Below, piece by piece: positions 860-53,919 of a stretch of DNA of 64,000 nucleotides. Origin of the DNA: an uncultured Gemmatimonadales bacterium (GTDB taxonomy: Bacteria; Gemmatimonadota; Gemmatimonadetes; Gemmatimonadales; GWC2-71-9); contig CAWJMT010000012.1 of assembly GCA_963844035.1 (NCBI GenBank), positions 1 to 64,000 of the forward strand. The letters are read 5' to 3'. The position numbers were made by a program, and so were the translations under genes. The stretch's first letter is position 1. Every line of letters starts with the position of its first letter. Below the pieces are notes generated by a model. That model made no database searches, was not told where the DNA came from, and saw only the letters and a program-made list of their open reading frames with translations.

Positions 860-1687
860 CGCGTCTCGGCCAGCACTTTCTCGCCGATCGCAACCTGCTC
901 AACAAGATCGTCGCCGCGCTCGATCCGGCGCCGGACGACGTCGTGATCGAAATCGGACCGGGGGAGGGGAGTCTCACGCGCATCCTGGCGCCGCTCGTGC
1001 AACGGGTGGTCGCGATCGAAACGGATCGCGGTTTTGGCGGAGCAACTGCGACTGCGGTGTCAGGTGTCGGGTGTCAGGTGTCAGGTGGTGACGGGTGACG
1101 CCCTCGAGCTTGATTGGCACGAGCTGTCGTCCGGACACCTGACACCTGACACCCGACACCGCCTTTCTTCACCTGACACCCGACACCGTCTTAAGGTTAT
1201 CGGCAACATCCCCTACTACATCACATCGCCGTTGATCGAGAAAGCGCTGACTCCTCCTCTCCCGGCGTGTGTCGTATTTCTCGTGCAGCGCGAGGTTGCC
1301 GACCGGCTCGCGGCCCCGCCGGGGAGCAAGCGGTATGGGGCGCTCTCGGTGGGGGTGCAGGCGGTGTGCCGGGTGGAGAAGCTGTTCGTCGTGAAGGCCG
1401 GCGCGTTTCGTCCTGCACCGCGGGTGGACAGCGCGGTCGTGCGGTTTACGCCGCTCCCCGATCCCTGGATCACAGCCGCCGAAACGGCGGCGTTTCGGGT
1501 GTTCGTCACCGCCTGCTTCAGCCGTCGCCGCAAGCAGTTGCGCAACGCGGTCATGGCGGCGACGGGCCGGCCGGCGGCGGAGGTGAGCGCACTTTTGAAG
1601 GCACTCGAGCTCCCGCCGACGGCGCGGCCCGAGACGCTGGCACCTGAGGTATTTGTGCGACTCTTGCGCGCGAGCCCTGCATTGTGA
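856..1687 (+). CDS. rsmA: 16S rRNA m6,6A dimethyltransferase KsgA/RsmA (frameshift near 1032; in-frame repeat inserts)
   Basis: GTG overlapping the upstream TGA; LGQHFL, VIEIGPGEG, GDAL, GNIPYYIT, FRPAPRVDSAVV across ORFs 37..1098 and 1034..1687. Confidence 0.93.
1056..1187. repeat. Inverted heptamer arrays (GGTGTCA)4 ... (TGACACC)4+2 inside rsmA
   Basis: Units at 1056-1087, reverse-complement units at 1134-1160 and 1170-1187. Confidence 0.95.
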
Positions 1688-1699
1688 AATGTTTCACAA
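1682..1699. promoter_or_regulatory. Rex operator (autoregulatory site)
   Basis: TTGTGAA-ATGT-TTCACAA matches the Rex consensus palindrome and ends 1 nt before the rex ATG. Confidence 0.9.
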
Positions 1700-1700
1700 T

Positions 1701-2321
1701 ATGCGGAAGATCGCCGAGAGCACGGTCCGCCGCCTCTCACTGTACCTCCGATTTCTCGAGCAGTTTGCAGCCCAGGGACATACGACGGTCTCGTCGGCAG
1801 AGCTTGCCCGCCGGGGGGGCACGACGTCGGCCCAGGTGCGCAAAGATCTGTCGTTCTTCGGGTCGTTTGGAAAGCGCGGCCTGGGGTATTCGGTGGCCGA
1901 GCTGGCTGCCAAGATCCGCGACATCCTGGGCCTCGAGCGCACCTATCGCGTGGTGCTCGTCGGGGCGGGGCGCATCGGCAGCGCGCTGGCGCAGTATCCG
2001 GGGTTCCGCCAGCGTGGCTTCAACGTCATGGCGATCTACGACACCGATCCCAAAAAGGTCGGCGGGCGCTGGGACGGGTTGGTGGTGCGCGACGTGGGAC
2101 ACCTCGAAGCGGATCTCAAGCGCGACCCGAGCGACATCGCCATTCTCGTGACCCCGGCGGACGCGGCGCAGGAAGTGGCCAACCGCCTGGTGCACGCGGG
2201 CGTCAAGGCCATCCTCAACTTTGCGCCGGTGCAGCTCACCGTGCCGCGCGACGTGGTAGTGAAATCGGTAAACATGGCCCTGGAGCTCGAGACGCTGAGT
2301 TTCGCTTTGGCCAACCGCTAG
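1701..2321 (+). CDS. rex: Redox-sensing transcriptional repressor Rex
   Basis: STVRRLSLY, QVRKDLSFFGSFGKRGLGY, VGAGRIG, ILNFAP. Confidence 0.97.
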   Translation: MRKIAESTVRRLSLYLRFLEQFAAQGHTTVSSAELARRGGTTSAQVRKDLSFFGSFGKRGLGYSVAELAAKIRDILGLERTYRVVLVGAGRIGSALAQYPGFRQRGFNVMAIYDTDPKKVGGRWDGLVVRDVGHLEADLKRDPSDIAILVTPADAAQEVANRLVHAGVKAILNFAPVQLTVPRDVVVKSVNMALELETLSFALANR

Positions 2322-2322
2322 G

Positions 2323-2353
2323 ATTCCGCACTCCCCACTCCGCCGTCCGCATT
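2323..2353. repeat. Degenerate heptamer array (ACTCCGC-like x4) between rex and arcA
   Basis: ATTCCGC ACTCCCC ACTCCGC CGTCCGC ATT. Confidence 0.7.
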
Positions 2354-2364
2354 ACCTTTCGTTC

Positions 2365-3597: not shown

Positions 3598-4409
3598 GCG
3601 GGCTTGCCGCGTTCCCTAGTTCGAGCCTCGCGAACCGCGCGGCGGCGTATCTCGAGGCCGGCCCTGCCTCGAGCATCGCGCTGGTACGAGACGTCCTGGG
3701 GCTGGGGGCGACCCCGCGCGCACTGGCGGCCAAGATTGCCCAGGCCCTGGTGGGTGGGGATCCCCGGGTGGCCCAGACGCCCGAGGGCCGCTGGGCGCTC
3801 GTCGGAACGGCGAGCGACGCGGTCAGTCCCGACCTCAGTGCGTGCCGGTTCGCCGTGGTGGATGTCGAAACCACGGGCGGCAGCGTCCGGACCGGCGGCC
3901 GCATTGTGGAGATCGCCGTGGTCGCGCTCGACGGCACTTCGCCGCGTGTGGAATTTCAGAGCCTCGTGAATCCCGGCGTGCCTCTTTCTCCGTTCGTTTC
4001 CAGGCTGACGGGAATCAGCGACGCGGCCGTGCGTGCCGCGCCACGATTCGAGGAGATCGCGGACGCGGTGCTCGGGAGTCTGGCGGGGAGCGTGTTCGTG
4101 GCGCACAGCGTGCGGTTCGACTGGGGGTTCATCGCCGCGGAGCTCGAGCGCACACGCGGCGTGCTGCTGCAGGGCCCCCGCCTCTGCACGGTCAAGCTCG
4201 CCCGCCGCTTCCTGCCCCCGCTCGACAGCCGCAACTTGGACAGCGTGGCGGACTTCCTCGGCATCACGATCGAGGGTCGCCATCGCGCCACCGGAGATGC
4301 AGTGGCGACTGCGCGGATTTTCGGGAAGGTGCTTGCGATCGCACGCGAGCGGGGTGCCGTGACCTTACGGGATCTGGCTCAGCTCCCCCCTAACCGCCTA
4401 ACCGTCTAA
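3594..4409 (+). CDS. DEDDh 3'-5' exonuclease (DnaQ/Pol III epsilon-like)
   Basis: VVDVETTG, LTGI, VAHSVRFD, HRATGDA; GTG start overlaps the arcA stop. Confidence 0.88.
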   Translation: MSGLAAFPSSSLANRAAAYLEAGPASSIALVRDVLGLGATPRALAAKIAQALVGGDPRVAQTPEGRWALVGTASDAVSPDLSACRFAVVDVETTGGSVRTGGRIVEIAVVALDGTSPRVEFQSLVNPGVPLSPFVSRLTGISDAAVRAAPRFEEIADAVLGSLAGSVFVAHSVRFDWGFIAAELERTRGVLLQGPRLCTVKLARRFLPPLDSRNLDSVADFLGITIEGRHRATGDAVATARIFGKVLAIARERGAVTLRDLAQLPPNRLTV

Positions 4410-4415
4410 CCGCCT
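4389..4415. repeat. Octamer array (TAACCGYC)3 at the exonuclease/MBL gene boundary
   Basis: TAACCGCC TAACCGTC TAACCGCC; the third unit supplies the TAA stop at 4407-4409. Confidence 0.85.
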
Positions 4416-5278: not shown

Positions 5279-5295
5279 GCTGCGCACAATACGGT

Positions 5296-5467
5296 AAGCG
5301 GGCGCCGTTGGCGTCCCACCCGCCGCCTCGTAAAGAGTGCTTTAGGGTAATGTCAGTTGCGCTGTCAGCATTCAGCGGTCAGCCATCAGGGCTGCCTTGC
5401 TGACCGCTGACGGCTGATAGCTGATGGCTCTTGAGGCGGCGGGCTCCCGGACGGACGGGGTCCGCTT
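5296..5467 (+). ncRNA. Structured infC-rpmI-rplT leader (candidate L20 autoregulatory leader)
   Basis: CCCGCCGCCTC 5319-5329 pairs with GAGGCGGCGGG 5433-5443; AAGCGGGC 5296-5303 pairs with GTCCGCTT 5460-5467; lies upstream of infC. Confidence 0.55.
5361..5429. repeat. Inverted heptamer arrays (GCnnTCA)4 ... (GCTGAnn)4
   Basis: GCTGTCA GCATTCA GCGGTCA GCCATCA then GCTGACC GCTGACG GCTGATA GCTGATG. Confidence 0.9.
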
Positions 5468-5496
5468 TCGCTTTTCTTCTCGGAGGAGAACCGACA

Positions 5497-6051
5497 CTGG
5501 CAATCGAAAGCAGCAGCAGCAGCAGCAGCAACAGCAACAGCAGCAAAGTGCCGCGGACGCGGGTGAACCGGCAGATCCGCATCAGTCCTCTTCGGGTCAT
5601 CGCACCCGACGGCGAGCAGTTGGGAGTCATGACCGTGGACGAAGCCCTGGCTGCCGCGTTGCAGCGGGGTCTCGATCTGGTCGAAGTGGCGCCGCTGGCG
5701 CGCCCCCCCGTGGTCAAGATCATGGACTACGGCAAGTTCAAGTTCGAGCAGGCGAAGGCGGCCCGGGCGGCGAAGAAAAAGCAGCACATCATCCAGCTCA
5801 AGGAAGTGAAGTTCCGTCCCGGAATCGACGATCACGATTTCGATTTCAAGACGCGGCATGCGCGCGAGTTTCTGGGTGACGGCAACAAGGTGAAGGTGAC
5901 GATGATGTTCCGCGGCCGGCAGATGGCGCACATCGATCTCGGCCGCGATGTGCTCGATCGGGTCGCGAGCGAGCTGAAAGACATCGCGAAGATCGAGCAG
6001 GATCCGAAGCTTGAAGGCCGCAACATGTCGATGGTGCTGGCCCCGAAATAA
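5497..6051 (+). CDS. infC: Translation initiation factor IF-3 (non-canonical start, CTG 5497 or ATC 5503)
   Basis: RVNRQIR, LDLVEVAP, PPVVKIMDYGKFKF, KEVKFRP; GGAGG at 5482-5486 with no in-frame ATG nearby. Confidence 0.96.
   Translation: MAIESSSSSSSNSNSSKVPRTRVNRQIRISPLRVIAPDGEQLGVMTVDEALAAALQRGLDLVEVAPLARPPVVKIMDYGKFKFEQAKAARAAKKKQHIIQLKEVKFRPGIDDHDFDFKTRHAREFLGDGNKVKVTMMFRGRQMAHIDLGRDVLDRVASELKDIAKIEQDPKLEGRNMSMVLAPK
5509..5544. repeat. (AGC/AAC)12 trinucleotide microsatellite encoding SSSSSSSNSNSS in IF-3
   Basis: Read directly from the sequence. Confidence 0.9.
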
Positions 6052-6124
6052 AGGTGCCAGGTGTCAGGTGCCAGGTGCCAGCAAGGCACTTCCTGACACC
6101 TGACACCTGACACCTGACACCTGA
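6052..6124. repeat. Inverted heptamer arrays (GGTGYCA)4 ... (CCTGACA)4 between infC and rpmI
   Basis: Left arm 6053-6081, right arm 6092-6124. Confidence 0.97.
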
Positions 6125-6133
6125 GGTTTCAGA

Positions 6134-7735: not shown

Positions 7736-10143
7736 TCGTGTCGCAGCGCTGGCTCGAAGCCATGCTGGGACGCGCGCTGGACCCACGCGACCTGGAGCAC
7801 CGGCTCAGCATGCTGGGTGCTCCGGTCGAGAGCGTCGTGCCGCTCCACCAGGACCTGGGCGACGTGCTGATCGCGGAAGTGCTCGAGGCCAAGAAGCACC
7901 CCAACGCCGACCGGCTCTCCCTCTGCCTCGTCAATGCCGGCTGGGCGAGCCCGGTCGAAGTGGTGTGCGGCGCCCCGAACGTCCAGGCGGGAAAGAAGTA
8001 TCCCTACGCACCCGTCGGGGCCGTGCTCCCTGGCGGGCTCAAGCTCGAGCGCAGGAAAATCCGCGGCGTCGAATCGAACGGCATGCTCTGCTCCGCGAAG
8101 GAGCTGGGACTGGGCGAGGACCACGCGGGGATCATGCAGCTCGACACCGACGCGGCCCCCGGCACACGGTTTCTCGACGTCGTTCCCATCGCCGACCATC
8201 AGGTCGTGATCGAGGTGACCGCGAACCGCCCCGACCTGCTGTGCCACAAGGGCGTGGCGCGAGAGCTGGGGGCGTCGCTCGGGGCGGTGGTGAAGCTGCC
8301 GGAGATACCAGGCGGGAAGGCGGGAGGGCGGGAGGCGGCCAGCGCACCTCCCGCCTTCCCGCCTTCCCGCCCGTGGTACCGTCGACGGCGTCGAGATCCG
8401 TCTCGAGGACGCCGAAGGTTGCCCCCGCTACATGGCCGCGGTCATTCGCGGCGTTCGGGTCGACAAGAGCCCCGCGTGGCTCGCCCAACGACTCGCGAGC
8501 ATCGGGCAGCGGTCGATCAACAACGTCGTCGACGCGACCAACTACATCCTGTTCGAGCTGAACCAGCCGCTGCACGCGTTCGATCTGGCCAAGCTGCGCG
8601 GCCCGGCCGTGGTCATCCGGCGGGCGCGCGCCAACGAGAAGATCGTCACGCTGGACGGGGTGGGGCGCACGCTCACACCGGAGATGACCGCCATCTGCGA
8701 CGCCGAGCGGCCGACGATCATCGCGGGCGTCATGGGAAGCGCCGAATCCGAAGTGTCGGCCACCACGACTGACCTCGTGCTCGAGTGCGCCTTTTTCGAG
8801 CCGACGCGGATCCGCCGCACCCGCCGCGCGCTCGAGCTGTCGAGCGAGTCGAGCTACCGGTTCGAGCGCGGCATCGACATGGCCGGGCATGCCCGACGCG
8901 TTGCGCCGTGCGATCGAGCTGATCGTCGCGGTCGCGGGGGGCGAGGTGCGGGAGCCACCGCTCGATCTCTGGCCGGCGCCGATCGAGGAGCGGACGATCT
9001 TCTTGCGTCCCGAGCGCGTGGGGCACCTGCTGGGCATGACGGTGGAGCGTCCCGAAATCGAGCGCATCCTCTCCTCGGTCGGCTTTTTCGTCGCGCCGAA
9101 GGACGCGCGCCTGGCGGTGCAGATTCCCGGCTGGCGGCCCGATGTGACGCGCGAGGTGGACCTGATCGAGGAAGTCGCGCGCCTCAAGGGGTACGACGCG
9201 TTCCCGGACGAGCTTCGTCCCTATCGACCCGGCACCGTTCCCGATGCGCCCGTCGAGCGCGCCAAAGCGGCAGGTGCGCGCGTCCCTCGCGCAGGCCGGG
9301 TTCTACGAAGCACGCACCTTCCCCCTGGGCCCCGCCGACGGGCCCGACGCGATCGCCGTCTTGAACCCCATGTCCGCCGAGGAGGGGCACCTGCGAACCC
9401 GGCTGCTGCCCGGCCTCGTACGTCGGGTGGAGCACAACTGGTCCGGCCGCACGAGGGATATTCGGTTGTTCGAGGTCGGCACCGTTTTCCGGCTGGGGAC
9501 GGGGGACGGGGGAAGGGGGAAGGGTGCACCCGAGGAGTGGATCTCCGTGGCGGGGGTGCTGACTGGCGCCCGGCGGCCGCCGCACTGGACGGAGGGTGCG
9601 AAAGTACCTGATATGGACTTATGGGACCTCAAATATCACTTTGGGTTAGCTGTCGGCCTGGCATCCCCCTCCAGTAGCGTTCGCGCCGCGGGAAATGGGG
9701 CAGGATGGGAGGCGGTTGGGCCGGACAACACGGTGGTGGGTTGGGCAGGCGCGCTCGAGGGCGATGCGCCGGTGTGGGCCGCCCCGCTGTTCGGTTTCGA
9801 AGTGCGCCTGACGTTGGATGACCGCCCACCGGTCCGCTACCGGCCGCTGCCGCAGACGCCGGCGGTGGAGCGCGACCTGGCGCTGGTCCTGCCGGCTGGT
9901 GTGACGGCGGCGGCCGTGGAGGAAGTGCTGCGGAAGCACGCCGGGCCGTTGCTCGACACGCTGACGGTATTCGACGAGTACCGCGGGCCCGGAATTGCGG
10001 CCGACCATCGCAGCGTTGGATGGCGCTGCTCGTTCCGCGATCCCGGCCGGACGCTGCGGGAGAACGAGGTGGATACGATCCTCGCGGCGGCATTGCAGGC
10101 CCTGGAGGCTGACCTTGGCGTACGACGGCGAGCAGCGGGTTGA
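7732..10143 (+). CDS. pheT: Phenylalanine--tRNA ligase beta subunit (frameshifts near 8375, 8885, 9268)
   Basis: HPNADRL, VVCGAPN, ESNGMLCS, TANRPD, NNVVDATNY, SYRFERG, DLIEEVAR, C-terminal RDLALV across four ORFs. Confidence 0.95.
8310..8373. repeat. Inverted octamer arrays (AGGCGGGA)3 ... (TTCCCGCC)3 inside pheT
   Basis: Encodes GGKAGGREAASAPPAFPPSRP. Confidence 0.88.
9495..9524. repeat. G-rich heptamer array (GGGGAMG)4 inside pheT
   Basis: GGGGACG GGGGACG GGGGAAG GGGGAAG encodes GTGDGGRGKG. Confidence 0.9.
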
Positions 10144-16753: not shown

Positions 16754-18472
16754 GTGCTCACGGAGCTGCGGGTGCGCGACCTCGCAGTGATCGCCGACGT
16801 GACCCTGCCGCTCCAACCCGGCCTGAACGTGCTCACCGGCGAGACCGGTGCGGGCAAGTCCATGCTGGTGGACGCGCTCGCGCTGCTGCTCGGCGAGCGG
16901 GCATCGTCGGATGCCGTCCGGCCTGGAGCCGCCAAGACGGTGATCGAAGGCGCCTTTGAATTGTACTTCGACCGCCCTCGACCGCCTTCGCCCGCCCTTG
17001 ACCGCCCTGGGCGTGGACACCGAGGACGGCCAGCTGATTCTCAAGCGCGAAATCACCGCCGAGGGCCGCTCCCGCGCCTGGGTGAACGGCAGTCCCACGG
17101 CAATCGGCGTCCTGAGCCAGCTCGGTGCGCTGCTGGTGGACCTGCACGGCCAGCACGAAACCCAGTCCTTGTTGCGCCCCGACGTGCAGCGCGAGCTGCT
17201 CGATGCGTTCAGCGACGCCCAGGTCGAGAGCGGCGCCGCCCGCAACGCGCATGAGAAGTGGAAAGGGCTCGAGCAGCGTGAGGAGGAGCTGCGGGGCAAG
17301 CAGGAAGACGTGCGCCGCAAAGCCGACTACCTGCAGCACGTGGTGGAAGAAATCCGCGCCGCGAACCCCAAGGTGGGCGAGGACGACGCGCTCGCGGGTG
17401 AAGCGCAGCGGCTGGCGCACGCCGACGAGCTGGGGCGGCTGGCGCGCGAGCTCGACCAGGCGCTCGACACGGCGGGGCTCGCCCGGGCGGCGAAGCTGCT
17501 CGCGGCGCTGCAGCGCCTCGATCCGTCGGCCGCTGCCTGGCAGCCGCTGCTCGACGGCGCCTTCGCCAATACCGACGAGCTGGCCCGCGCGGCCCGCGAG
17601 TACGGGGGCAGCATCGACGCCGATCCTGACCGGCTCGCTCGTCTGGAGCAGCGCCGCGACGTGCTGTTTCGCCTCGACCCAGAAGTACGGACCGACGCTG
17701 CCCGACGTCTTAGCGGCGCGAGATGCCGCGGCGCGCGAGCTCGAGCTGCTCGACACCGCCGACCTCGATCTCCGCGCGCTCGCCGAGCAGCGGGACGTCG
17801 CCGCGGCGGACTTCACGCGTGCCTGCGGCGCGCTGACCGCCAAGCGCCAGGCTGGTGCCGCGCGCATGGCCCAGGCGGTGGATCAGCTGCTGCCGGCGCT
17901 CGGGATGCCGGGCGGGCGCTTCGTGGTGCGGCTTGCAGCGCGGCGGGCCGCCTACGCGCAGGGCGCGGAGGATGTCACGTTCGAGGTGCAGCTGAATACG
18001 GGTCTCGACGCGCGCCCGCTGGCGCGGGTCGCGTCAGGCGGCGAGTTGTCGCGGCTGATGCTGGCGCTGAAGGTGGTCCTGGCGGCGCACGACGCGGTGC
18101 CGACGCTGGTATTCGACGAGGTCGATCAGGGGATCGGCGGTGAGGCGGGGGTGAAGGTGGGAGAAGCGTTGGCGACGGTCGCCCAGGGCGAGGGGCGGCA
18201 GGCGCTGGTGATCACCCACTTGCCGCAGATCGCCGCCTACGCGGACCACCATCTCGTCGTTTCGAAGGGGGCACGCGGCGGCATCGCCACGTCGGACGTG
18301 CAGGTGGTAACGGCGGACGCGCGCCGCGCGCGAGCTGGCGCGCATGCTGGGGGCCCCCGACATGGACACGGCGCTGCGGCATGCCGCGGAGCTGCTCAAA
18401 GCAGCTTCCAATCGATCCGCATCACGAGCCGGAACACCGTCGTCACCGGTACAAGGCCGCCCTCGCCGTTGA
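16754..18472 (+). CDS. recN: DNA repair protein RecN (frameshifts near 16960, 17677, 18325)
   Basis: LTGETGAGKS, DLHGQH, ASGGELSR, FDEVDQG, ITHLPQIAA, ELARMLG. Confidence 0.94.
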
Positions 18473-29393: not shown

Positions 29394-29479
29394 GCCGGGG
29401 TGGTGAAATTGGTAGACACAAGGGACTTAAAATCCCTTAGGAGGCAACTCCTGTGTGGGTTCGAATCCCACCCTCGGCA
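29394..29479 (+). tRNA. tRNA-Leu (anticodon TAA)
   Basis: Acceptor GCCGGGG/CCTCGGC-A, D-loop TGGTAGAC, anticodon arm AGGGA-CTTAAAA-TCCCT, long variable arm AGGAG-GCAA-CTCCT, GGTTCGAATCC; CCA not encoded. Confidence 0.97.
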
Positions 29480-29488
29480 TTTCCTTCC

Positions 29489-29920
29489 TTACCTCGGCAC
29501 CCGGGGATCCGGGACCCCGGTGCATATCGCTTGTTCGGGGTCCTGCTCGCAATCGCCGGGCGGCCCGGCAATGGACACGATGGTCGCGCTTTGGCCGTTC
29601 GACCCGACGCCGACAAGAAATGCGGCCATGCCGATGGTAATGCCGCCAATCAACAGCGCCGTGCGCATAGGGGCGTTCGACTGCACGCGCACGTCCTTGA
29701 CCCGGGCGCTGGGCATCTTCTCGCGGTGCCGGCCGACGTACCCCACCAGCGTGTCGCGCACGATCTTGGGCTCGTACATGAGCGTGACCGACTGGTCATG
29801 CTCCGTCAGCCAGACGCGCTCCGGTGCCATGAGGGTCATCTGGTCCAGGGTCACGGACTTCATCCTGCTGCACGCGGCGCTCGCGAGGGTCGCGAGGAGC
29901 AGGGCGCAGATGATTTTCAC
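29489..29920 (-). CDS. Uncharacterised lipoprotein, tandem paralogue 3
   Basis: GTG start coupled to the upstream stop; LASAAC lipobox; shared core, TM helix, CEQDPEQAIC. Confidence 0.82.
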   Translation of the reverse strand: MKIICALLLATLASAACSRMKSVTLDQMTLMAPERVWLTEHDQSVTLMYEPKIVRDTLVGYVGRHREKMPSARVKDVRVQSNAPMRTALLIGGITIGMAAFLVGVGSNGQSATIVSIAGPPGDCEQDPEQAICTGVPDPRVPR

Positions 29921-30342
29921 TGTGGGGTCCCGCTGCAGATCTCTTGCTCGGGATGCTTGTCGCAATCGCCAGGCGCGCCGGCCATAGTTGTCGTTGGTGT
30001 CTGACTTGTGCCGTTCCCCGAAACAGCGACCAGCATGCCGACGAAGCCGACGGTGAGGCCGCCCACCAATAGCGCGGTGCGTGCGGGGGCCTTCGTCTGG
30101 ACGCGCACCTGCTTGACCCCGGCGCTCGGCAACTTCTCCCTGTGCTTGCCGACGTACCCCACCAACGTGTCGCGCACGACCTTGGGCTCGTACAGGAGCA
30201 CGACCGATTCGTCGCTCTCCGTCACCCAGACGCGCTCGGGTCCGAGGTGGCTCATCTGGTCCAGCGTAACGGTCCTCATCCTCGAGCAGGCAGCGCTCGC
30301 GAGGGTCGTGAGGAGCAGGGCGCAGATGATCGGACGCGTCAT
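29917..30342 (-). CDS. Uncharacterised lipoprotein, tandem paralogue 2
   Basis: ATGA overlap; LASAAC lipobox; shared core, TM helix, CDKHPEQEIC. Confidence 0.82.
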   Translation of the reverse strand: MTRPIICALLLTTLASAACSRMRTVTLDQMSHLGPERVWVTESDESVVLLYEPKVVRDTLVGYVGKHREKLPSAGVKQVRVQTKAPARTALLVGGLTVGFVGMLVAVSGNGTSQTPTTTMAGAPGDCDKHPEQEICSGTPQ

Positions 30343-30755
30343 TCGGGAACCCCGGTGCAGATGGTCTGCTCGGGGTCGATGTCGCAATAACCAGCCGGGC
30401 CGGTCGTGGACGTGATGGGCGCGCTTTCGCCGGTTCCGCTACTGAGGACAGCGAACCCGATGAAGCCGGCCGCGATGCCGCCCACCAACAGCGCGGTGCG
30501 GGCGGGGGCCTTCGACTGCACGCGCACGTCCTTGACCCGGGCACTGGACATCTTCTCGCGGTGCCGGCCGACGTATCCCACCACCGTGTCGCGCACGATC
30601 TTGGGCTCGTACATGAGCGTGACCGACTGGTCTTGCTCCGTTATCCAGACACGCTCTGGTCCCATAAGGGTCATCTGGTCCAGTGTCACGGACTTCATCG
30701 TCTTGCAGCCAGTGCTCGCCACGGCGGCGAGGAGGAGGCAGATGAACAGACGCAC
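30339..30755 (-). CDS. Uncharacterised lipoprotein, tandem paralogue 1
   Basis: AGAGGT RBS plus GTG; ASTGC lipobox; shared core, TM helix, CDIDPEQTIC. Confidence 0.82.
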   Translation of the reverse strand: MRLFICLLLAAVASTGCKTMKSVTLDQMTLMGPERVWITEQDQSVTLMYEPKIVRDTVVGYVGRHREKMSSARVKDVRVQSKAPARTALLVGGIAAGFIGFAVLSSGTGESAPITSTTGPAGYCDIDPEQTICTGVPE

Positions 30756-35545: not shown

Positions 35546-36243
35546 TTCCGCGCGTCATTGCGATCGATGGGCCAGCCGCGTCAGGGAAATCATCGACCGC
35601 GGCGGCGGTGGCGCGTCAGCTGGGGTGGGGACATTTCGACTCGGGAGCGTTGTACCGGGCAATTACTCTGGCAGCGCTCGACAACTTGGGGGAAGCGGGA
35701 AGGGGGAAGGGGGACGAGTGGTCGCCGCAGCGGATTTTGGCGCTCGCGGAAGACCTCCCGGTACGGCTGGTGCTGGTGAACGATGTGTTCAGGCCCGAGA
35801 TCGCGGGCGTGGACGTCGCGAAGGCGATTCGTGCGGAGCGGGTGACCGAGCGGGTCTCCGGGGTAGCCGCGGTGCCGCAGGTGCGCGCCTGGGTGAACGC
35901 CCGTCAGCGCCAGGCCGTCCTCGATCATCCCCGCGGCGTGGTGGTGGACGGCCGCGACATCGGCACGGTGGTGTTTCCCGACGCTCCGCTCAAGGTGTTT
36001 CTCACCGCCAGTCCGGAAGAGCGGGCGCGGCGCCGGCTGCTGCAACGCCGGGAGCCGGTCAACCCGGCGGACGTGCAGCGGGAGGCGGCGATCCTCGCGG
36101 AACGGGATCGCGCCGACTCGACGCGCGCTGTGGCACCCCTCAAACCCGCCGCCGACGCTGTGGGTCTGGACACGACTTCGATGGACCAAGCCCAACAGGT
36201 GAGCCACGTTGTGGCGCTGGCGCGCGACCGCCTCCCCGGCTAG
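35542..36243 (+). CDS. cmk: Cytidylate kinase
   Basis: IAIDGPAASGKS, DSGALYR, DGRDIGTVVFP. Confidence 0.96.
   Translation: MIPRVIAIDGPAASGKSSTAAAVARQLGWGHFDSGALYRAITLAALDNLGEAGRGKGDEWSPQRILALAEDLPVRLVLVNDVFRPEIAGVDVAKAIRAERVTERVSGVAAVPQVRAWVNARQRQAVLDHPRGVVVDGRDIGTVVFPDAPLKVFLTASPEERARRRLLQRREPVNPADVQREAAILAERDRADSTRAVAPLKPAADAVGLDTTSMDQAQQVSHVVALARDRLPG
35688..35716. repeat. G-rich heptamer array (SGGGAMG)4 inside cmk
   Basis: GGGGAAG CGGGAAG GGGGAAG GGGGACG encodes GEAGRGKGD. Confidence 0.85.
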
Positions 36244-36315: not shown

Positions 36316-38058
36316 ATGTTGGTAGACACCCAGGACCTCGAGGATAAATCCGAGGGTCCTTCCAAGCCGGTCCCCCATTCCCCCCTGCGTGTTCGTTCCG
36401 ATCTCAACGAGGAGTACTCGGCCGACGAAATCGCCAGAATGACGGATCTGTACGAGGGAACCCTCTCGAACATCCAAGAAGGCGAAATCGTCAAGTCCAA
36501 AGTGCTGCGGGTGACCGACACCGCGGTCATTCTGGATGTGGGATTCAAGTCCGAAGGCGCCGTAGCGATCGACGAGTTCAAGGATCCCCACAGCCTGAAG
36601 GAAGGCGACATCGTCGAAGTCTTCCTCGAGCACCTCGAGGATCAGGAAGGGGCGGTCGTCCTCTCGAAGAAAAAAGCCGACTTCATGCGGGTGTGGGAAC
36701 GCATTCGCGAAGCGCACGAGAAGGACGAGGGCGTCAGCGGGACGCTGGTGAAGAAGATCAAGGGCGGCGTGGTCGTGGATCTGATGGGGGTGGACGCATT
36801 CCTCCCGGGCAGCCAGATCGCGCTCCGGCGGGTGCCGAACATCGACGAGCTGCTGGGGCAGAGCTTCGAGTTCAAGATCATCAAGCTCAACAAGCGGCGC
36901 CGCAACATCGTCGTGAGCCGCCGCGTGCTGCTCGAGGCCGAGCGCAAGACCAAGCGCGACGTCCTGATGAAGGAGCTGCAGGTCGGCCAGGTGCGCAAAG
37001 GCGTCGTCAAGAACATCACCGACTTCGGCGCCTTCATCGATCTGGGCGGCGTGGACGGACTGCTGCACATCACCGACATGAGCTACGGCCGCGTGTCCCA
37101 TCCGTCGGAGATGGTTCACATCGGCCACGAGCTCGAGGTGAAGGTGCTCGACATCGATTGGGAGCGCGAGCGCATCAGCCTGGGGTTGAAGCAGCTCCAG
37201 GCGTACCCGTGGAAGAACGTCGCCGCCAAGTATCCGGTCGGCACGCGGGTCCAGGGGAAGGTCGTGTCGATCACGAACTACGGCGCGTTTGTGGAGCTCG
37301 AGCCCGGGATCGAGGGCCTGGTGCACATTTCGGAGATGAGCTGGACGCGCAACGTGCGCCATCCGTCGAAGATCGTGTCGATCGGCGAGACGATCGAGGC
37401 GGTCGTGCTCAAGGTGGACGAGACCGAGGAGAAGGTCTCGCTCGGCATGAAGCAGACCGAGGAAGATCCGTGGATGGCGTTGCCGCAGAAGTATCCGGTG
37501 GGCACGCGCATCAACGGCAAGGTGCGCAACCTCACCTCGTTCGGCGCCTTCGTCGAAATCGAGCCGGGGATCGACGGGCTGATCCACATCTCGGACATGT
37601 CCTGGACCAAGCGGGTGCAGCACCCCTCGGAGCTCGTGAAAAAGGGCGACGAGGTGGACGTGCTGATCCTCAACGTCGATGCCGAGAACAAGCGCATCTC
37701 GCTCGGCCTCAAGCAGGCCGACGAAGACCCGTGGCTCAAGATCGGTGAGACCTATCCGGTCGGCACCGAGCTGCGCGGCCGCGTGGTACGCCTGATGGAC
37801 AAGGGCGCCGTCGTGGATCTGGGGAACGACATCGAAGGGTTCATCCCGATGTCGCAGTTCGGCATCCCCGACGTTCAGAATCCGGCGGATGCGGTCAAGG
37901 AAGGGCAGGCGGTCGAAATGAAGGTCCTGGAGGTGGACCCCATCCACCATCGGATCGTGATGGCGGCTACCTCGTGGCCCGAGGGTGACATTATTCCCCC
38001 GACGCCGTTGCCGCCGCCGCCGCCGGATGACAAACCCGAAGTAGAGCGCGGACCGTAG
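36316..38058 (+). CDS. rpsA: 30S ribosomal protein S1
   Basis: Six S1 domains (DVGFKSEG, AFLPGSQI, FGAFIDLGGVDGLLHITD, GIEGLVHISE). Confidence 0.97.
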   Translation: MLVDTQDLEDKSEGPSKPVPHSPLRVRSDLNEEYSADEIARMTDLYEGTLSNIQEGEIVKSKVLRVTDTAVILDVGFKSEGAVAIDEFKDPHSLKEGDIVEVFLEHLEDQEGAVVLSKKKADFMRVWERIREAHEKDEGVSGTLVKKIKGGVVVDLMGVDAFLPGSQIALRRVPNIDELLGQSFEFKIIKLNKRRRNIVVSRRVLLEAERKTKRDVLMKELQVGQVRKGVVKNITDFGAFIDLGGVDGLLHITDMSYGRVSHPSEMVHIGHELEVKVLDIDWERERISLGLKQLQAYPWKNVAAKYPVGTRVQGKVVSITNYGAFVELEPGIEGLVHISEMSWTRNVRHPSKIVSIGETIEAVVLKVDETEEKVSLGMKQTEEDPWMALPQKYPVGTRINGKVRNLTSFGAFVEIEPGIDGLIHISDMSWTKRVQHPSELVKKGDEVDVLILNVDAENKRISLGLKQADEDPWLKIGETYPVGTELRGRVVRLMDKGAVVDLGNDIEGFIPMSQFGIPDVQNPADAVKEGQAVEMKVLEVDPIHHRIVMAATSWPEGDIIPPTPLPPPPPDDKPEVERGP

Positions 38059-38060
38059 GC

Positions 38061-38198
38061 TAGACGCACAGACGCATAGACGCACAGACGGTGAATAGCG
38101 AAAGGGGGACAGGACAGGTCTGTCCCCCTTTCTTACTGTTTACCACTATGCGTCTATGCGCCTATGCGTCTGCCTATGCGCCTGTGCGTCTATGCCCC
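38061..38198. repeat. Inverted octamer arrays (YAGACGCA)4 ... (TATGCGYC)~6 surrounding the rpsA terminator
   Basis: Left arm 38061-38092, right arm 38147-38198. Confidence 0.93.
38100..38134 (+). terminator. Intrinsic terminator after rpsA
   Basis: GAAAGGGGGACAG-GACAGGT-CTGTCCCCCTTTC-TT. Confidence 0.8.
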
Positions 38199-38213
38199 TA
38201 GATTCTGTCCACT

Positions 38214-39738
38214 ATGACAATGCGTGAGAAAGCTCGAACTCCTACAGCAGAAGCGCGCCGAGTCCGAGCTCGGCGGCGGTCCCGAGCGAATCCAGGCCCA
38301 GCACGACAAGAAAAAAATGACCGCGCGCGAGCGGCTCGACGCGCTGGTCGATCCCGGCTCGTTCGTCGAGCTTGACCGGTTCGTGACGCACCGCTCGAGC
38401 GACTTCGGGCTGGCCGACGAGCAGTACCTGGGCGACGGCGTCGTGACCGGCCACGGCACTATCGACGGGCGGCCGGTCTTCGTGTTTGCCCAGGATTTCA
38501 CCGTGTTCGGCGGCTCGCTCTCCGAGACCAACGCGGAAAAGATCTGCAAGGTGATGGACCTGGCGGTCAAGACCGGGGCGCCGATCATCGGCTTGAACGA
38601 CTCGGGCGGCGCGCGGATCCAGGAAGGGGTCGCCTCGCTGGGCGGCTACGCCGACATTTTCCTGCGCAACACGCTTGCCTCGGGCGTGGTCCCGCAGATC
38701 AGCGCGATCCTCGGGCCCTGCGCGGGCGGCGCGGTGTACAGCCCCGCGATCACCGATTTCGTGTTCATGGTGCGCGGGGTGTCGTACATGTTTGTGACCG
38801 GCCCGAACGTCGTGAAGACCGTCACCCACGAAGACGTGGATTTCGAGAGCCTGGGGGGCGCTGACGTCCATGGCATCACCTCCGGGATCGCGCACTTCGT
38901 GCACGATTCAGAGCTCGAGTCCCTGGCGGCGATCCGCACGCTGCTGTCGTACCTGCCGTCCAACAACCTCGACGCCCCGCCCGTGATCCCGAGCGGCGAC
39001 CCGGCCGACCGGCGGGACGAAGAGCTGCTCGACGTAATCCCCGACAACCCGACCCAGGCCTACGACATGCATGACGTGATCCGCCGCGTGGTGGACCGGG
39101 GCGTGTTTTTCGAGGTGCAGCGGGACTTCGGGGGCAACCTGCTGGTCGGCTTCGCGCGCCTGGGCGGCCGTCCGGTCGGCATCATCGCCAACCAGCCCGC
39201 GACCCTGGCCGGCGTGCTCGACTCGAACGCCTCGGTCAAGGGCGCGCGCTTCATCCGCCTGTGCGACGCGTTCAACGTGCCGCTCGTCACCTTCGAGGAT
39301 GTCCCGGGCTTCCTCCCTGGGGTTGCCCAGGAGCACGGCGGGATCATCAAGCACGGCGCCAAGCTGCTCTACGCCTATTGCGAAGCCACCGTCCCCAAGC
39401 TGACGGTCATCACCCGCAAGGCATACGGCGGCGCGTACGACGTGATGAGCTCGAAGCACATCCGCGGCGACTACAACCTCGCGTGGCCCACCGCCGAGAT
39501 CGCGGTCATGGGGCCGAAGGGCGCGGTGGAAATCCTCGACAAGGGCGAAGCCACCGAGCAGAGCGAAGCGGAGTATCGGGAGAAGTTCGCCCACCCCTAC
39601 CTGGCGGCCGCCCGCGGCTTCCTGGACGACATCATCGACCCGCGCGACACGCGGCCGCGGCTGATCGCCGCGCTCGCGACGCTGGCGTCCAAACGCGACC
39701 GGAATCCTCCCAAGAAGCATGGCAACATTCCTCTGTAG
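38214..39738 (+). CDS. pccB: Acyl-CoA (propionyl-CoA) carboxylase carboxyltransferase subunit (probable ATG 38214 with an extra A near 38230, otherwise GTG 38224)
   Basis: [45 protein letters not shown]. Confidence 0.94.
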
Positions 39739-40679: not shown

Positions 40680-42193
40680 ATGATTGATTTCACCCGAGTG
40701 CTGGTCGCGAACCGCGGCGAGATCGCGCTCCGCATCATCCGCGCCTGCCACGAGGAGGGCCTCGAGGCGGTGGCGGTCTATTCCGAGGCCGACCGCTTGT
40801 CTCCGCACGTGCGCGCGGCCGACCGCGCCGTGCCCATCGGTCCCGCGCCCGCGATTGACTCGTACCTGAACATCGGGGCGCTGCTCGAAGCCGCCCGCGC
40901 CACCGGCTGCGAAGCGGTGCATCCCGGCTACGGGTTCCTCTCGGAGCGGGCGCCGTTCGCGGAGGCCGTGGAGCGGGCCGGTCTGGTGTTTGTCGGGCCG
41001 TCGCCCGAGGCGATGCGCGCCATGGGCGACAAGACCGAAGCGCGGCGGCGCATGCAGGCCGCCGGCGTGCCGATCGTGCCGGGCTCCACCCAACCCGTCA
41101 GCGACCTGCATCAGGCCGGCGTTCAGGCGGGGCGGATCGGATTTCCGGTGCTGCTCAAGGCGGCGGCCGGCGGCGGCGGCAAGGGGATGCGTCTGGTGCG
41201 CGACGCCGCGGAGCTCGCATCGGCATTCGAGGCGGCGCGCAGCGAAAGCCTGAAGGCGTTCGGCGCCGACGACGTCTACATCGAGAAATATCTGGAGGCC
41301 CCGCGGCACATCGAGGTCCAGGTGTTGGCCGACACGCACGGCCGGATCATCTCGCTGGGCGAGCGGGAGTGCAGCGTCCAGCGCCGCTACCAGAAGCTGA
41401 TCGAGGAAGCGCCGTCGGTGGCCGTGTCGCCGGCTCTGCGCCGCCGTTTGGGCGAAGCGGCCACCGCGGCCGCGGGGTCGGTCGGCTACGTCGGCGCGGG
41501 CACGATCGAGTTCCTGCTGACGGCGAACGGCACCTTCTATTTCCTCGAGATGAACACCCGCATCCAGGTCGAGCACCCCGTCACCGAGCTCGTGTACGGC
41601 GTCGACCTGGTGCGCGAGCAGCTGCGGATCGCCGCCGGCAAGCCGATGCGGGTCCATGCGGGGACTCTCAATCCGCGCGGCCACGCGATCGAATGCCGCA
41701 TCACGGCCGAAGACCCGTTCAACGATTTCCTCCCGGCGACCGGGGTGATCCAGTACCTGCGCGTGCCGGGCGGTGCGGGAGTGCGTTGGGACGGCGGCGT
41801 GGAGTCGGGGCAGGAGATCACGCCTGTACTACGATCCGCTGCTCGGGAAGCTGATCGTGTGGGCGGAATCCCGCGAAGTGGCGATCCGGCGCATGGTGCG
41901 GGCGCTGCGCGAGCTGGTGATCGTGGGCCTGCCGACGTCGCAGCCGTTTCACCTCCTGGTGATGGACGATCCCGGGTTTCAACGCGGGGAGCTCGACATC
42001 ACCTACCTCGACCGCTTTGGGCTGGGGCACCTGCCGCAGGGCACGCGGGAGGAGCTGGTCCGTCCCGCTCGCGGTGGTCGCCGCGCTGCTGGCTGAGGAG
42101 CGCCGCACGGAAACTCGCTCGACGACCGCCCGACCGCCCGACCGCCTGTCCGCCTGGGTTGTTGAGGGGCTGCGGGAAGGTTTGCGCGAATGA
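40680..42193 (+). CDS. accC: Biotin carboxylase subunit (frameshifts near 41823, 42062)
   Basis: LVANRGEIALR, HPGYGFLSE, AGGGGKGMR, RECSVQRR, FLEMNTRIQVEHPVTE, YYDPLLGKL. Confidence 0.95.
42123..42155. repeat. Octamer array (CGACCGCC)3-TGTCCGCC in the accC 3' end
   Basis: Read directly; encodes TARPPDRLSA. Confidence 0.85.
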
Positions 42194-46412: not shown

Positions 46413-46485
46413 CAGGTGTCAGGTGTGAGGTGCCAGGTGTCAGGTTTCTGAAACCCTGACACCTGAAACCCGACACCTGACACCT
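46413..46485. repeat. Inverted heptamer arrays (CAGGTGT)5 ... (CCTGACA)4 between rpsI and rpsB
   Basis: Left arm 46413-46447, right arm 46455-46485. Confidence 0.95.
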
Positions 46486-46489: not shown

Positions 46490-46587
46490 TCCACACGCTG
46501 CCCGATCCGGTCGCGGGTCCCCGCCTTCGCGGCGGGGTTCGACCGGAGATGACGGCAGCGGCGGAACGAACCCAGAAAGGGAGGGGC
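46490..46587 (+). ncRNA. Structured rpsB leader (candidate S2 autoregulatory leader)
   Basis: Nested stems CGCTGCC/GGCAGCG, TCCGGTCG/CGACCGGA, CCCCGCC-TTCGC-GGCGGGG directly upstream of the rpsB RBS. Confidence 0.6.
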
Positions 46588-49454: not shown

Positions 49455-49456
49455 CG

Positions 49457-51054: not shown

Positions 51055-52180
51055 CCACGGGCGTGGCGGTGCTCGGCTCCACCGGGTCGATCGGCACCTC
51101 GGCGCTGCAGGTGCTCGCCCGCCAGCGCGAGCGCTTCCGGGTGGTCGCCTTGACCGCTCACTCGAATGCCGGCCTGCTCGACCACCAGGCAAAGGAGTGG
51201 CAGCCGGCGTATGTCGGGATCGTCAATGGCGGGACGGGGGACGGGGGACGGGGGAAGGGTACGGCATGCCTTGTGGAAGCCGCCACGCGACCTGACGTTG
51301 ATATTGTCATCAACGGCATCGTGGGTGCGGCCGGGCTCGAGGCGACGCTCGCCGCATTGTGCGCCGGGAAACGGGTGGCGCTCGCCAACAAGGAGAGTCT
51401 GGTGATGGCCGGCGAGCTGGTCACGCGCGCCGCGCGCCAGGGGGGCGGTGAGATCGTACCGGTGGACTCGGAGCACAGCGCCGTGCTGCAGTGTCTCACC
51501 GGGCGCAGGCCCGGCGACGTCGCCAGCCTGACGCTGACCGCCTCTGGGGGCCCGTTCCGCACCTGGACGCCGGAGCGCGTAGCCGACGCCACGATCGAAG
51601 CGGCGCTCCAGCACCCGACGTGGCGGATGGGCCGCAAGATCACGGTGGACTCCGCGACGCTCGTCAACAAGGCCCTCGAGGTGATCGAAGCGCACTACCT
51701 GTTCGGCGTCGAGTACGACCAAGTCAGGGTCGTGGTGCATCCGCAGTCGCTCGTGCACGCGCTGGTCGAGTTCGTGGACGGATCGGTGTTGGCCCAGATC
51801 GGATTTCCAACGATGGAGGTACCGATTCTGTACGCGCTGACCCACCCGGAGCGTGTCCCTGACGACGGCACGCGCCGCTTCGACCCCGTGGCCGCCGAGA
51901 CACTCACCTTCGAGCCGGTGCGCCACGAGCTGTACCCCGCGTACCAGCTGGGGCGCGAGGCGGCGCTCGCCGCGGGGGACGCTGCCGGCGGCGTTCAACG
52001 CGGCGAACGAAGTCGCCGTGCAGCGGTTTCTCGACGGCAAGATCCGCTTCGGCCAGATCGCGCGCATCATCGACGCGGTGCTGACGGACGACGCAGTCGG
52101 GGGACGCTCAGTCCCTGGACGGCGTTCTGGCCGCCGACGCCGAGGCACGGCGGATGGCCTGGGAGGTCGCATGCTCCTGA
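51051..52180 (+). CDS. dxr: 1-deoxy-D-xylulose-5-phosphate reductoisomerase (frameshifts near 51972, 52100)
   Basis: LGSTGSIG, LANKESLV, PVDSEH, HPTWRMGRKITVDSAT, NAANE. Confidence 0.96.
51230..51259. repeat. G-rich heptamer array (SGGGAMG)4 inside dxr
   Basis: CGGGACG GGGGACG GGGGACG GGGGAAG encodes GTGDGGRGKG. Confidence 0.9.
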
Positions 52181-53535
52181 CGATCGTTTCGCTCGTCGTC
52201 GTCCTCGGCGTGCTGATCTTCGTGCACGAGGCCGGCCACTTCATCGCCGCCAAGGCGATGGGGATCCAGGTGCTGCGCTTCTCGCTCGGCTTTGGGAGGC
52301 CGCTCGTGCTGGTGCGGCGGGGCGAGACGGAGTACTGCATCTGTTGGATTCCGCTCGGCGGCTACGTGAAGATGGCGGGCCTCGAGGACGAGGGAATCGC
52401 GGGCGAGCTCGAGGGGGGCGCGGGCGCGGTCCCCGTGGATCCGGAGCGCGCGTTCGACCGGAAGCCGGTCTGGAAGCGGATGGTGGTGATCCTCGCCGGG
52501 CGTCACGATGAACGCGATCTTCGCGTTCGTGGTGTACACCGCGCTCGCCTACCAGGGCACGCTGCAGGCGGACCGGCTCGCAACCACCGCGGTGGACAGC
52601 GTGCGGGCGAGCGAGCTGCCGCCGCAGGCCGCGGAGCTCGCGACGCTGCCGCGGGGGAGCCGGATCGTCACGGTGAACGGCGATTCCGCTGTCAACGTGG
52701 GGTGAGCTGCTCGAGCGGCTCGTCGATCGCACCGAGCCCGATCCGGCTCGAGGTCGCCGGGCGCGCCGAGCCAATCGTGCTGACGCTGGCGCAGGATGAC
52801 ACCGCCGCGCGCATGCAGCTCGCGCGGGGGCTGACGGTCTTCCTTCCGCCCGTCGCGGCGCAGGTCACGCCGGGAGGCCCGGGCGATCGCGCGGGGTTCA
52901 AGCCCGGGGATCGCATCCTGCGCATCAACGACGATACGATGGCATCGTGGACAGACTTTGCCCGCACGGTGCGCGACCGTCCCGAGCAGGAGATCGTGGT
53001 CGCCGTGGCGCGTGGGGGGCAGCGCGAGGTGCTGCACGTGGTGCCCGAGCGGCGGGTCGAGACCGATCCCGAAACGAAGCAGGAGCGGGTGTTCGGGCTG
53101 GTGGGTCTGGTCGCGGAGCATCCGGTGCTCAAGGCCCCCGGCGCACTCGGAGCGCTGCGGCTCGGCTGGCGGGAAACGATGTCGCGCACGGGCATGATCC
53201 TGCAGTTCCTGCGCAGCCCGCGGGTGCAAGAGCTGGGTGGGCCCCTCACCATCGGCCAGGTGTCGGGTCAGGCCGCGCGCGTGGGGCTCAGCGCATTCCT
53301 GGCCTTCATGGCGCTCCTGTCGCTCAACCTCGCAGTGCTGAACCTGCTCCCGATTCCGATCCTCGACGGTGGGCAGGTCGTGTTCCTGGTGGCGGAGGCG
53401 GTGCGCCGCCGGCCGCTCTCGGTGCAGCTCCGCGCCCGGCTCACGCAGGTGGGCTTCTTCGTGCTGGTCGGCATCATGCTGCTCGCGCTGCGCAACGACG
53501 TCCTGCGCGTGTTCCCCCATGTCTTCTCCCGTTAG
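52171..53535 (+). CDS. rseP: RIP metalloprotease RseP (frameshifts near 52500, 52700)
   Basis: HEAGH, IPLGGYVKM, PDZ domains, NLLPIPILDGG. Confidence 0.94.
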   Translation: MLLTIVSLVVVLGVLIFVHEAGHFIAAKAMGIQVLRFSLGFGRPLVLVRRGETEYCICWIPLGGYVKMAGLEDEGIAGELEGGAGAVPVDPERAFDRKPVWKRMVVILAGRHDERDLRVRGVHRARLPGHAAGGPARNHRGGQRAGERAAAAGRGARDAAAGEPDRHGERRFRCQRGVSCSSGSSIAPSPIRLEVAGRAEPIVLTLAQDDTAARMQLARGLTVFLPPVAAQVTPGGPGDRAGFKPGDRILRINDDTMASWTDFARTVRDRPEQEIVVAVARGGQREVLHVVPERRVETDPETKQERVFGLVGLVAEHPVLKAPGALGALRLGWRETMSRTGMILQFLRSPRVQELGGPLTIGQVSGQAARVGLSAFLAFMALLSLNLAVLNLLPIPILDGGQVVFLVAEAVRRRPLSVQLRARLTQVGFFVLVGIMLLALRNDVLRVFPHVFSR

Positions 53536-53919
53536 GCGCGAGCTGGAGGAGTACGTCGCGGGGCGGGGTGGCGAGGCGCGGCTCGTGAGCAGCGGTGATG
53601 GATGCCTACTACCGGGATGGGGGAAGCGGGAAGAGGGAAGCGTTGCGTCCGCTGATCGATGTGATTGAGCGGGCGGCGCCGGGCGTCGTCGAGCTCGCGG
53701 CGGCGGGTGACACGCCGGGGTTCCGGGTGCGCCTCGCCGAGCGCCCGTTCCCGGAGCGGTACGCAGAACGACCTGCGCGCCGCGGCTGGCATGGCGTTGC
53801 AGGCGTGGGGGGCGGAAGCTCCTGCATCCCCTCCACCACCTCCACCTCCTCCATCCCCTCCCAATCGGGGCCTGCTCCAACGCGTGCTGGGCGTTATCCG
53901 GCGCTGGTTCGGCGAATAA
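53519..53919 (+). CDS. Hypothetical protein with Pro-rich linker and amphipathic C-terminus (two frameshifts)
   Basis: Coding signal stitched from ORFs 53369.., 53595.., 53665..53919. Confidence 0.5.
53613..53642. repeat. G-rich heptamer array (NGGGAWG)4
   Basis: CGGGATG GGGGAAG CGGGAAG AGGGAAG. Confidence 0.8.

Follow-up and report, generated by a model that had tools for sequence, protein, structure and literature searches.

In this work we followed up a stretch of 64,000 nucleotides (the window) at the start of contig CAWJMT010000012.1 of an uncultured Gemmatimonadales bacterium, in which an initial annotation had noticed short tandem arrays of 7- and 8-nucleotide units dispersed through core genes. 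The window is contig C12:1-64000 of the genome under study, labelled G000 (3.47 Mb, 84% complete); compared genomes are labelled G001 and so on, X1 is another public run, and window coordinates refer to the + strand. There is good evidence that these arrays, which are real and far from chance, are linked to genes encoding four-helix-bundle (FHB) proteins of the PF05635/TIGR02436 family (both over cut-off). The arrays are built of arms with four cores each, neighbouring arms stand in a fixed order, partner arms are independent of each other, some pairs enclose host DNA, the repeated word changes in place at inherited sites, and words match FHB proteins. We consider it quite possible, if somewhat short of probable, that each FHB protein specifies a word and that the arms are written de novo on opposite strands.

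Array words and four-helix-bundle genes

The genome-wide scan proposed in the initial annotation returned 134 period-7 and 134 period-8 arms, compared with 2.3 each under a null consisting of one order-5 Markov simulation scaled to genome size. Tandem Repeats Finder gave 128 rows for period 7 and 142 for period 8, against 0 and 2.3 in the null; counts above the null were likewise obtained for period 6 (47) and period 9 (37), whose units are mixed and largely codon repeats. Nine families hold 259 of the 268 arms, and the arms fall at 199 loci. A basecalling artefact is ruled out by the presence of arrays at orthologous sites in many other assemblies and on a contig from another public run, which covers 5767-6121 with nine differences; the best public run contains 0.17 of the window's words. 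The G000 assembly has many frame breaks, some of them near ksgA and pheT; they are likely sequencing errors, because the ksgA break consists of one surplus base within a run of T's upstream of the arm. One FHB locus is present three times (C9:145127, C30:5309 and C1:103422, with 85-95% identity) and another is common to C17 and C1 at 92%; the assembly therefore probably mixes strains, some arm counts being duplicated. Outside the nine families, G000 has an A+T-rich inverted 8-mer pair at C20:13738-13859, and its contigs C22, C25 and C34 (41-52 kb, lower GC) carry no arms.

Seven PF05635 genes, at five independent loci, were found in G000, all between protein-coding genes and none in an rRNA gene; none lies within the window, the nearest being at C12:79466. 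The annotation had suggested asking which gene families are flanked by the same arrays and, by eye, all seven FHB genes are bracketed by arms of the window families; the automatic detector, applied to six FHB loci, called both arms at four, one arm at one and none at one. FHB genes are the sole gene type bracketed by same-family pairs in G000. GxxExxY, reverse transcriptase (RT), RAYT and bAvd genes were rejected as array partners in this genome, being either not found or away from arms: no gene matched PF13366 (GxxExxY) or RVT_1, and four RAYT-like Y1 transposase genes (C23:11530, C23:33741, C5:185867 and C5:200388) are flanked by their own palindromes, not by arms. Palindromes similar to the latter lie in the infC-rpmI gap of G002, G006 and G016.

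The FHB family was found in 50 of the 61 genomes searched. At 96 FHB loci (90 of 210 matches, mostly from the top of the list, plus six), arms were detected on both sides in 54 cases, on one side in 19 and on neither in 23; the figure for control windows is 5.6%. The arms flanking FHB cassettes are about 470 nt apart. Orthologues were compared, as the annotation had advised, at the single pyrimidine-rich arm of the GGAATGC family that lies past the rex stop (2323..2352), a site that was mapped in 15 of 20 relatives. It is filled in G018 and G021, which have the complete FHB cassette, collapsed to a bare pair in G001, G006 and G017, and empty of arms in the 10 others.

Several comparisons indicate that the word follows the FHB protein. 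The period of the arms clusters on the FHB protein tree (6 changes versus 23.9; 0/500 shuffles). When each FHB protein is compared with the nearest one encoded at a different locus, the two periods agree in 0.90 of 72 cases versus 0.52, and the two words differ by no more than two letters in 0.35 versus 0.09, the same-locus filter in this comparison being imperfect. Column 9 of the protein is V in 26/26 cases, all 7-mers, and every one of the 28 8-mers has A, as do 14 7-mers; scans of protein columns against bases gave lineage-confounded signals only, and no amino-acid-to-base code is claimed. The FHB proteins of loci L148 and L154 are 79% identical, with 7-mer and 8-mer flanks, respectively.

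Words can also be compared with the rest of each genome. Family abundance is patchy, with at least 12 GGGA[AC]G matches in 11 of the 61 genomes. An FHB gene flanked by the genome's own GGGA[AC]G variant was seen in six of these 11 (G002, G004, G006, G017, G026 and G041), and not in G000, G001, G005, G014 and G049. The FHB gene that precedes an mnmG-like gene in G033, its rpsA pair and its genome-wide 8-mer all have the word GACGGGTA, whereas G000 and G016 have AGACGCAY at both the FHB/mnmG-like site and the rpsA site. Among the first 108 loci no FHB partner turned up for the GGAATGC family; profile searching then recovered a divergent FHB subfamily, missed by PF05635, and in 4 of 5 genomes this subfamily is flanked by GGAATGC units in the variant proper to that genome. 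The median number of matches to three patterns is 1 in genomes without PF05635 versus 15.5 (p 0.003, kin not being independent), and co-occurrence is not significant for two patterns (1/11 versus 16/50, Fisher p 0.16) and gives p 0.016 for three (2/11 versus 31/50). G003 is 100% complete, is nested among array-rich congeners and has no FHB gene by three queries; it shows 0 arms in 228 kb versus 22 in 195 kb of its sister G006, and has apparent decayed arm remnants at cmk, dxr and C3:75638.

Residues W10, N49, E52 and E75 are invariant in the FHB protein. Its predicted model matches 2GSC (template-modelling (TM) score 0.96), 2RLD and Avd (TM 0.78), and 2GSC and 2RLD have five chains each. The ESM Atlas returned bAvd clusters only (0.79), a lead at most. 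Two divergent groups were also noted. One clade (L172-L176 and L288, from G005, G025, G009 and G033) has inverted degenerate flanking units of about 10-15 nt; the other, a BT_0352/2RLD-like subfamily (L289-L292) at one conserved locus in four genomes, is missed by PF05635, and PF05635 counts therefore underestimate the FHB family.

Four-unit arms in a fixed order around host DNA

Arms are about 30-33 nt long, with four cores each. The AGGTGTC family has four cores in 36 of its 48 runs of three or more, and two-core runs are not in excess; four-core runs number 38 for GGGA[AC]G, 21 for GGCGGG and 25 for GGCGGTC, and five-core runs are absent from all three. The annotation had described units with a fixed core and variable other positions, which is the case in four families (chi-square p 5e-11 to 1e-58 over unit positions); the free positions take restricted letters, as at position 5 of GGGA[AC]G (A63/C34/G1/T1). 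Identical units are adjacent within arms no more often than in within-arm shuffles. Slippage had been judged a poor fit, and we concur: variants are unclustered, core number peaks at four rather than forming a decaying length series, and the order of neighbouring arms is fixed in 57 of 60 cases. Four G-tracts are present in GGGA[AC]G and GGCGGG arms, and missing from AGACGCTA, TCAGCCR and many FHB flanks. Adenine-specific variation was not seen on either strand, with an invariant A and variable T/C/G positions.

The consistent arm order noticed in the window extends to the genome, where among 60 neighbours within 200 nt the purine-rich arm comes first in 57, three are parallel and none is reversed. 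Of these 57 pairs, 52 are same-family and five are mixed. The bias is lost at 200-1500 nt, apart from the same-family pairs (3/3), all of which enclose FHB genes. Fold-back copying of one arm from its partner is ruled out, since partner arms have 0.278 of 176 units in common versus 0.280 for shuffled partners, and exact mirrors number 0/52. Whole-arm copying between loci gave no signal either, identical arms being no more frequent than in unit-order shuffles; GGGA[AC]G arms form sub-dialects, with 33 identical pairs versus 14 in a position-wise shuffle. Target-site duplications, sought as 5-nt direct repeats, were found at 0/52 pairs and 3/53 cassettes, near the shuffled level. Insertion into a pre-existing stem was also rejected, terminators excepted, because coding spacers fold like shuffles (median z -0.09 for 19 long spacers). 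A different arrangement was noted at G000 C4:390163-390706, where two same-direction AGACGCAY arms, each beside a REP-like palindrome, flank a tRNA-like gene.

Single arms within coding sequence have the purine-rich strand as sense strand in 19/19 classified cases, of which 15 would stay stop-free if flipped; the coding-frame classifiers left 150/199 loci unclear in a first version and 79/199 in a second. Pyrimidine-rich single arms exist in accC, at 4389 and in 11/44 other co-directional cases.

Relatives show that the DNA between two arms may belong to the host. In ksgA (rsmA), an in-frame purine-rich arm of the AGGTGTC family (1056..1087) is followed by host coding DNA for VTGDALELDWH (1088..1133) and by the complementary arm with a partial repeat, also in frame (1134..1187); a variant unit of the latter reads CGA exactly where the consensus would yield TGA. 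The 46-nt interior is kept in five arm-free relatives, and both arms occur in 9 of 16 mapped relatives, in three different words and always in frame. The mnmE arms enclose the TKxD motif; of the 23 loci 12 were parsed, and five of these have the two GGGA[AC]G arms, each in its genome's variant, whereas the others have an 8-mer right arm (two), a remnant (one) or no arm (four). Host coding DNA is likewise enclosed at C3:75638, in an unnamed protein. At rpsA, a purine-rich AGACGCAY arm directly 3' of the stop (38062..38090) and a complementary 8-mer arm 5' of a carboxyltransferase gene (38146..38198) enclose the host intrinsic terminator (38100..38132), and a similar hairpin is found in arm-free G003. 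An element-derived interior is thus refuted at these four loci. The annotation had left two options, a trans-acting mechanism or the footprint of an element that inserts and is later lost. The second can explain short-spacer pairs but not pairs that enclose host coding DNA, and two independent scars would produce all four orders, whereas one is observed; trans-acting writing is favoured because arm pairs enclose host coding DNA.

Words are also replaced at inherited sites. One signal peptide, a further case of host DNA between arms, carries at least six words across nine genomes and none in four; at G000 C4:68299 and C3:231024 the arms provide two parts of signal peptides, the basic N-region and the region of cleavage, for which relatives use other words. 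The inverted 8-mer pair in a pheT loop (8310..8373), made of GGCGGGAA, is replaced by other 8-mer words in G004, G005, G006, G009 and G025, and a contig of run X1 has about eight differences in the pheT flanks, yet both its arms consist of another 8-mer word. The junction preceding a metallo-beta-lactamase-fold gene, where G000 has a single pyrimidine-rich 8-mer arm of the TTAGGCGG family (4389..4415), has other families in G001, G009, G021, G025 and G033. The inverted AGGTGTC pair between rpsI and rpsB (46413..46485) corresponds to other words in G015, G017, G025 and G029, most other genomes being without an arm. The infC-rpmI intergenic region, with its inverted AGGTGTC pair (6052..6124), is a spacer of just 11-20 nt, without arms, in G004, G005, G015, G025 and G033.

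Further features of the window

All 13 arrays listed in the initial annotation were recovered at the same places by Tandem Repeats Finder and a family-motif scan, and the six inverted pairs are borne out, each with the purine-rich arm first (1056-1187, 5352-5429, 6052-6124, 8310-8373, 38062-38198 and 46413-46485). Long stems are predicted for all six (z -4.3 to -11), with 0/200 shuffles equally stable. The proposed families needed revision, the 'TCAG/CTGA' 7-mer group being really two (AGGTGTC and TCAGCCR) and the 8-mers at least four. Host genes in or beside the arrays are ksgA, rex, the metallo-beta-lactamase-fold gene, infC, rpmI, pheT, cmk, rpsA, accC, rpsI-rpsB and dxr. The inverted TCAGCCR pair (5352..5429) lies in the variable portion of the conserved infC leader. 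Single purine-rich arms of the GGGA[AC]G family are in frame in pheT (9495..9524), cmk (35688..35717) and dxr (51230..51259), and another is close to the start of an open reading frame (ORF) without a Pfam match (53613..53642). The final codons of accC contain a single pyrimidine-rich 8-mer arm of the GGCGGTC family (42123..42156). A four-unit 10-mer array in recN (16968..17008) had been overlooked; its units resemble the GGCGGTC family, of which it is a candidate member, and a second four-unit 10-mer array lies at G000 C5:96286.

The 18.4-33.4 kb block is indeed arm-free, yet this is ordinary, as 28 of 179 inter-locus gaps are at least 26 kb. With regard to the settings described for the arrays, a terminator is called at 38100-38132, as claimed; '-10' and 'leader loop' are by inspection only, because no leader RNA in the window matched Rfam and no sigma-70 promoter was called at 37900-38400. 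The structured conserved leader before infC (5288-5500, no Rfam match) precedes an apparent TTG start and an AGC triplet run in the infC N-terminus (5509-5545) whose length varies among relatives; a second conserved leader lies 5' of rpsB (about 46490-46560). The arm-free block contains a 419-nt tandem repeat in 2.6 copies (29640-30738), just past tRNA-Leu(TAA) (29394-29479).

Proposed origin and comparison with known systems

The arms resemble products of a directional writing process, not copies. Extending the idea that each FHB protein specifies a word, we tentatively propose, while regarding it as rather doubtful, that FHB rings are protein-programmed writers which, with neither RT nor copied template, add four units of a degenerate 7-8-base word to nicked strands, overwriting older arms, building a mobile cassette and inserting peptide loops, and that they are the source of heptamer repeats and of ORF-bearing rRNA intervening sequences (IVS). 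In the main reading stated at the outset, the ring, pentameric in 2GSC and 2RLD, would bind the word with one unit per subunit, and the nicked strand may be extended by four units through a polymerase or ligase of the host or through some cryptic activity of the ring itself. Unit-by-unit writing at breaks on opposite strands would make the arms face inward around any interior. The FHB gene could be the favoured substrate in cis, giving a cassette that comes and goes among relatives. Dispensable interiors may later be deleted, leaving single arms or pairs with short spacers (1-30 nt), and selection would retain an insertion only if frame, stop codons and signals stay intact. A protein of 120 residues and an oligonucleotide of 30 bases would suffice to test writing directly. 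If the writer is real, DNA of a specific sequence can be made by a route not seen before, from which core genes would naturally acquire loops, signal-peptide ends and hairpins.

A number of observations weigh against protein-specified writing. Searches for RVT_1, Y1 and fusions found no writing enzyme, one search among 22 longer FHB forms showing no polymerase or recurring enzyme fusion, and the structural matches of the FHB model are 2GSC, 2RLD and Avd only, none of which is a known catalyst. Four cores do not exactly match a five-subunit ring. Five pairs mix two families, and arms therefore need not arise together; ordinary point changes separate the arms of G004 from those of G005. At some older sites (cmk in G004, dxr in G006) the word that persists is unlike the one that prevails in the genome. 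The FHB link itself has exceptions: G014 and G031 show 12 and 20 pattern matches with no FHB found, G026 has seven FHB genes yet no arm in 32 kb of core regions, and the 23 of 96 FHB loci without a detected arm include a whole clade. FHB partners are missing from the 84% complete assembly of G000 for GGGA[AC]G, the largest family, and for GGAATGC, TCAGCCR and GGCGGTC. The FHB tree is quick and poorly resolved, unit labels were set by hand and related genomes are non-independent. Finally, selection for a binding site would equally give fixed cores and genome-wide words.

This last point is central to the main rival explanation, which we consider unlikely but worth serious attention: FHB only binds the word, as RNA or DNA, and there is no writer; the arms are supplied by cassette insertion, slippage in place and short conversions, and their cores, copy number and order are shaped by selection. 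Selection would be for binding or for hiding the pyrimidine-rich arm in a stem. It would account for fixed cores with free positions that drift between close genomes, for the decay of arms where FHB is missing and for the purine bias of coding single arms (19/19); exposed pyrimidine-rich arms may moreover do harm if no partner upstream pairs with them, and this could likewise yield the fixed order. However, same-word arms around essential host DNA that are not copied from each other are left unexplained, as are switches between 7- and 8-base words at one site, slippage and copying left no signal, and the pyrimidine-rich single arms (accC, 4389 and 11/44) do exist.

The kinship of the FHB fold with Avd in the predicted models (TM 0.78) raises the idea of a non-autonomous retroelement, which appears improbable. 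An Avd-like FHB ring would recruit an RT supplied occasionally in trans, and arm-bearing RNA would be copied at nicks on both strands; copying halted after the arm would leave arms around host DNA, and full copying would move the cassette. Two primed events on opposite strands would give both the order and the fixed four-unit length. Nevertheless, RVT_1/PF00078 had no match in 6/6 array-rich genomes (G000 and five others that are 94-100% complete), a negative that incomplete assemblies and remote RTs could escape, the arms are not copies of one another, and variation is not confined to adenines on either strand. Still less probable in our opinion is that a host enzyme writes or amplifies the arrays, FHB genes being merely carried along and surviving within hairpins. 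The FHB family has no known catalytic role, the arrays far outnumber FHB genes and some families are partnerless in this assembly, all of which would suit a host enzyme; yet across loci the word tracks the FHB lineage and agrees with the flanks of the FHB gene in the same genome, the nested FHB-free genome G003 lacks intact arms, and same-family pairs bracket no other gene type in G000. Ordinary polymerase slippage of heptamers retained where G-quadruplexes or hairpins are useful, a published view to which the parts of PMC4692102 and PMC4679880 used here lend a four-unit preference and convergent pairs of GGGAATC in Xanthomonas linked to quadruplexes and, as cited in the latter, a proposed 7-nt preference of slippage, and which a few long, pure arms in relatives would fit, is very improbable and largely excluded already, because families without G-tracts (AGGTGTC, TCAGCCR and AGACGCTA) follow the same rules, hairpins cannot account for an order of 57 to 0, variants are not adjacent and the FHB link is left unexplained.

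Among known systems, the part of PMC4990558 used here describes an ORF-bearing 23S rRNA IVS of Coxiella burnetii with an S23p gene, the 5' end of which has tandem heptamers, three or four in number. As in the Coxiella element so described, the FHB genes studied here, which are of the same S23p family (PF05635/TIGR02436), lie within terminal inverted repeats. In contrast with IVS, the cassettes are between protein-coding genes and not inside an rRNA gene, gene-less arms are about 30-fold more numerous than cassettes, and arms bracket host DNA. RNase III removes IVS from the transcript, and we know of no mobility mechanism for them. The short tandemly repeated repetitive (STRR) sequences of cyanobacteria are heptamer repeats, and the arrays fall descriptively in this heptamer/STRR class, with dispersed 7-nt units, about four per array, near gene ends. 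Other members are the GGGAATC and GGGGA(C/T)T repeats of Xanthomonas and Nostoc, with four-unit preference and convergent pairs (PMC4692102), and the TAACTGA repeats of Beggiatoaceae, of origin unknown according to PMC4679880; neither paper, in the parts used, states a mechanism or a link to the FHB family. To the extent that these repeats are described there, 7-base units, a preference for four, dispersal, proximity to stops and starts, and convergent pairs are common to them and to our arrays, which differ by the coexistence of nine 7-/8-base families, many without G-tracts, and by the FHB link.

REPIN-RAYT systems, in the part of PMC3116915 used here, consist of a gene flanked by its own repeat family, which is also dispersed as inverted doublets. 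A repeat proper to each gene and dispersed inverted doublets (here 52 same-family inverted pairs among 60 close neighbours) are likewise found in our system; unlike what that part describes, no HUH (Y1) transposase stands at the arms, units are tandem and degenerate and not palindromic, and the arms are not copies replicated as units, occur in coding sequence and enclose host DNA. Scars of miniature inverted-repeat transposable elements or insertion sequences would have a target-site duplication, absent here, and an interior derived from the element, whereas the interiors at four loci are host DNA. The likeness of the four-helix bundle to Avd has been published, as the part of PMC10053308 used here indicates. 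It is seen here in the fold predicted for FHB, related to Avd of diversity-generating retroelements (4DWL). In telomerase-like repeat addition, repeats are added to a DNA end, and the arms may be akin to such products in being directional, phased, fixed-length tracts; our system differs from both retroelements and telomerase in that no RT or template RNA was found and no adenine-specific variation was seen.

In the open literature, subscription papers and supplements lying outside the search, we found no publication that connects FHB genes with arrays of this kind outside rRNA. To our knowledge, bacterial heptamer repeats and the S23p family have both been unexplained for decades, and the present data join them word by word. 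Each part of the system is known on its own, and the combined behaviour departs from the defining features of every family compared above.

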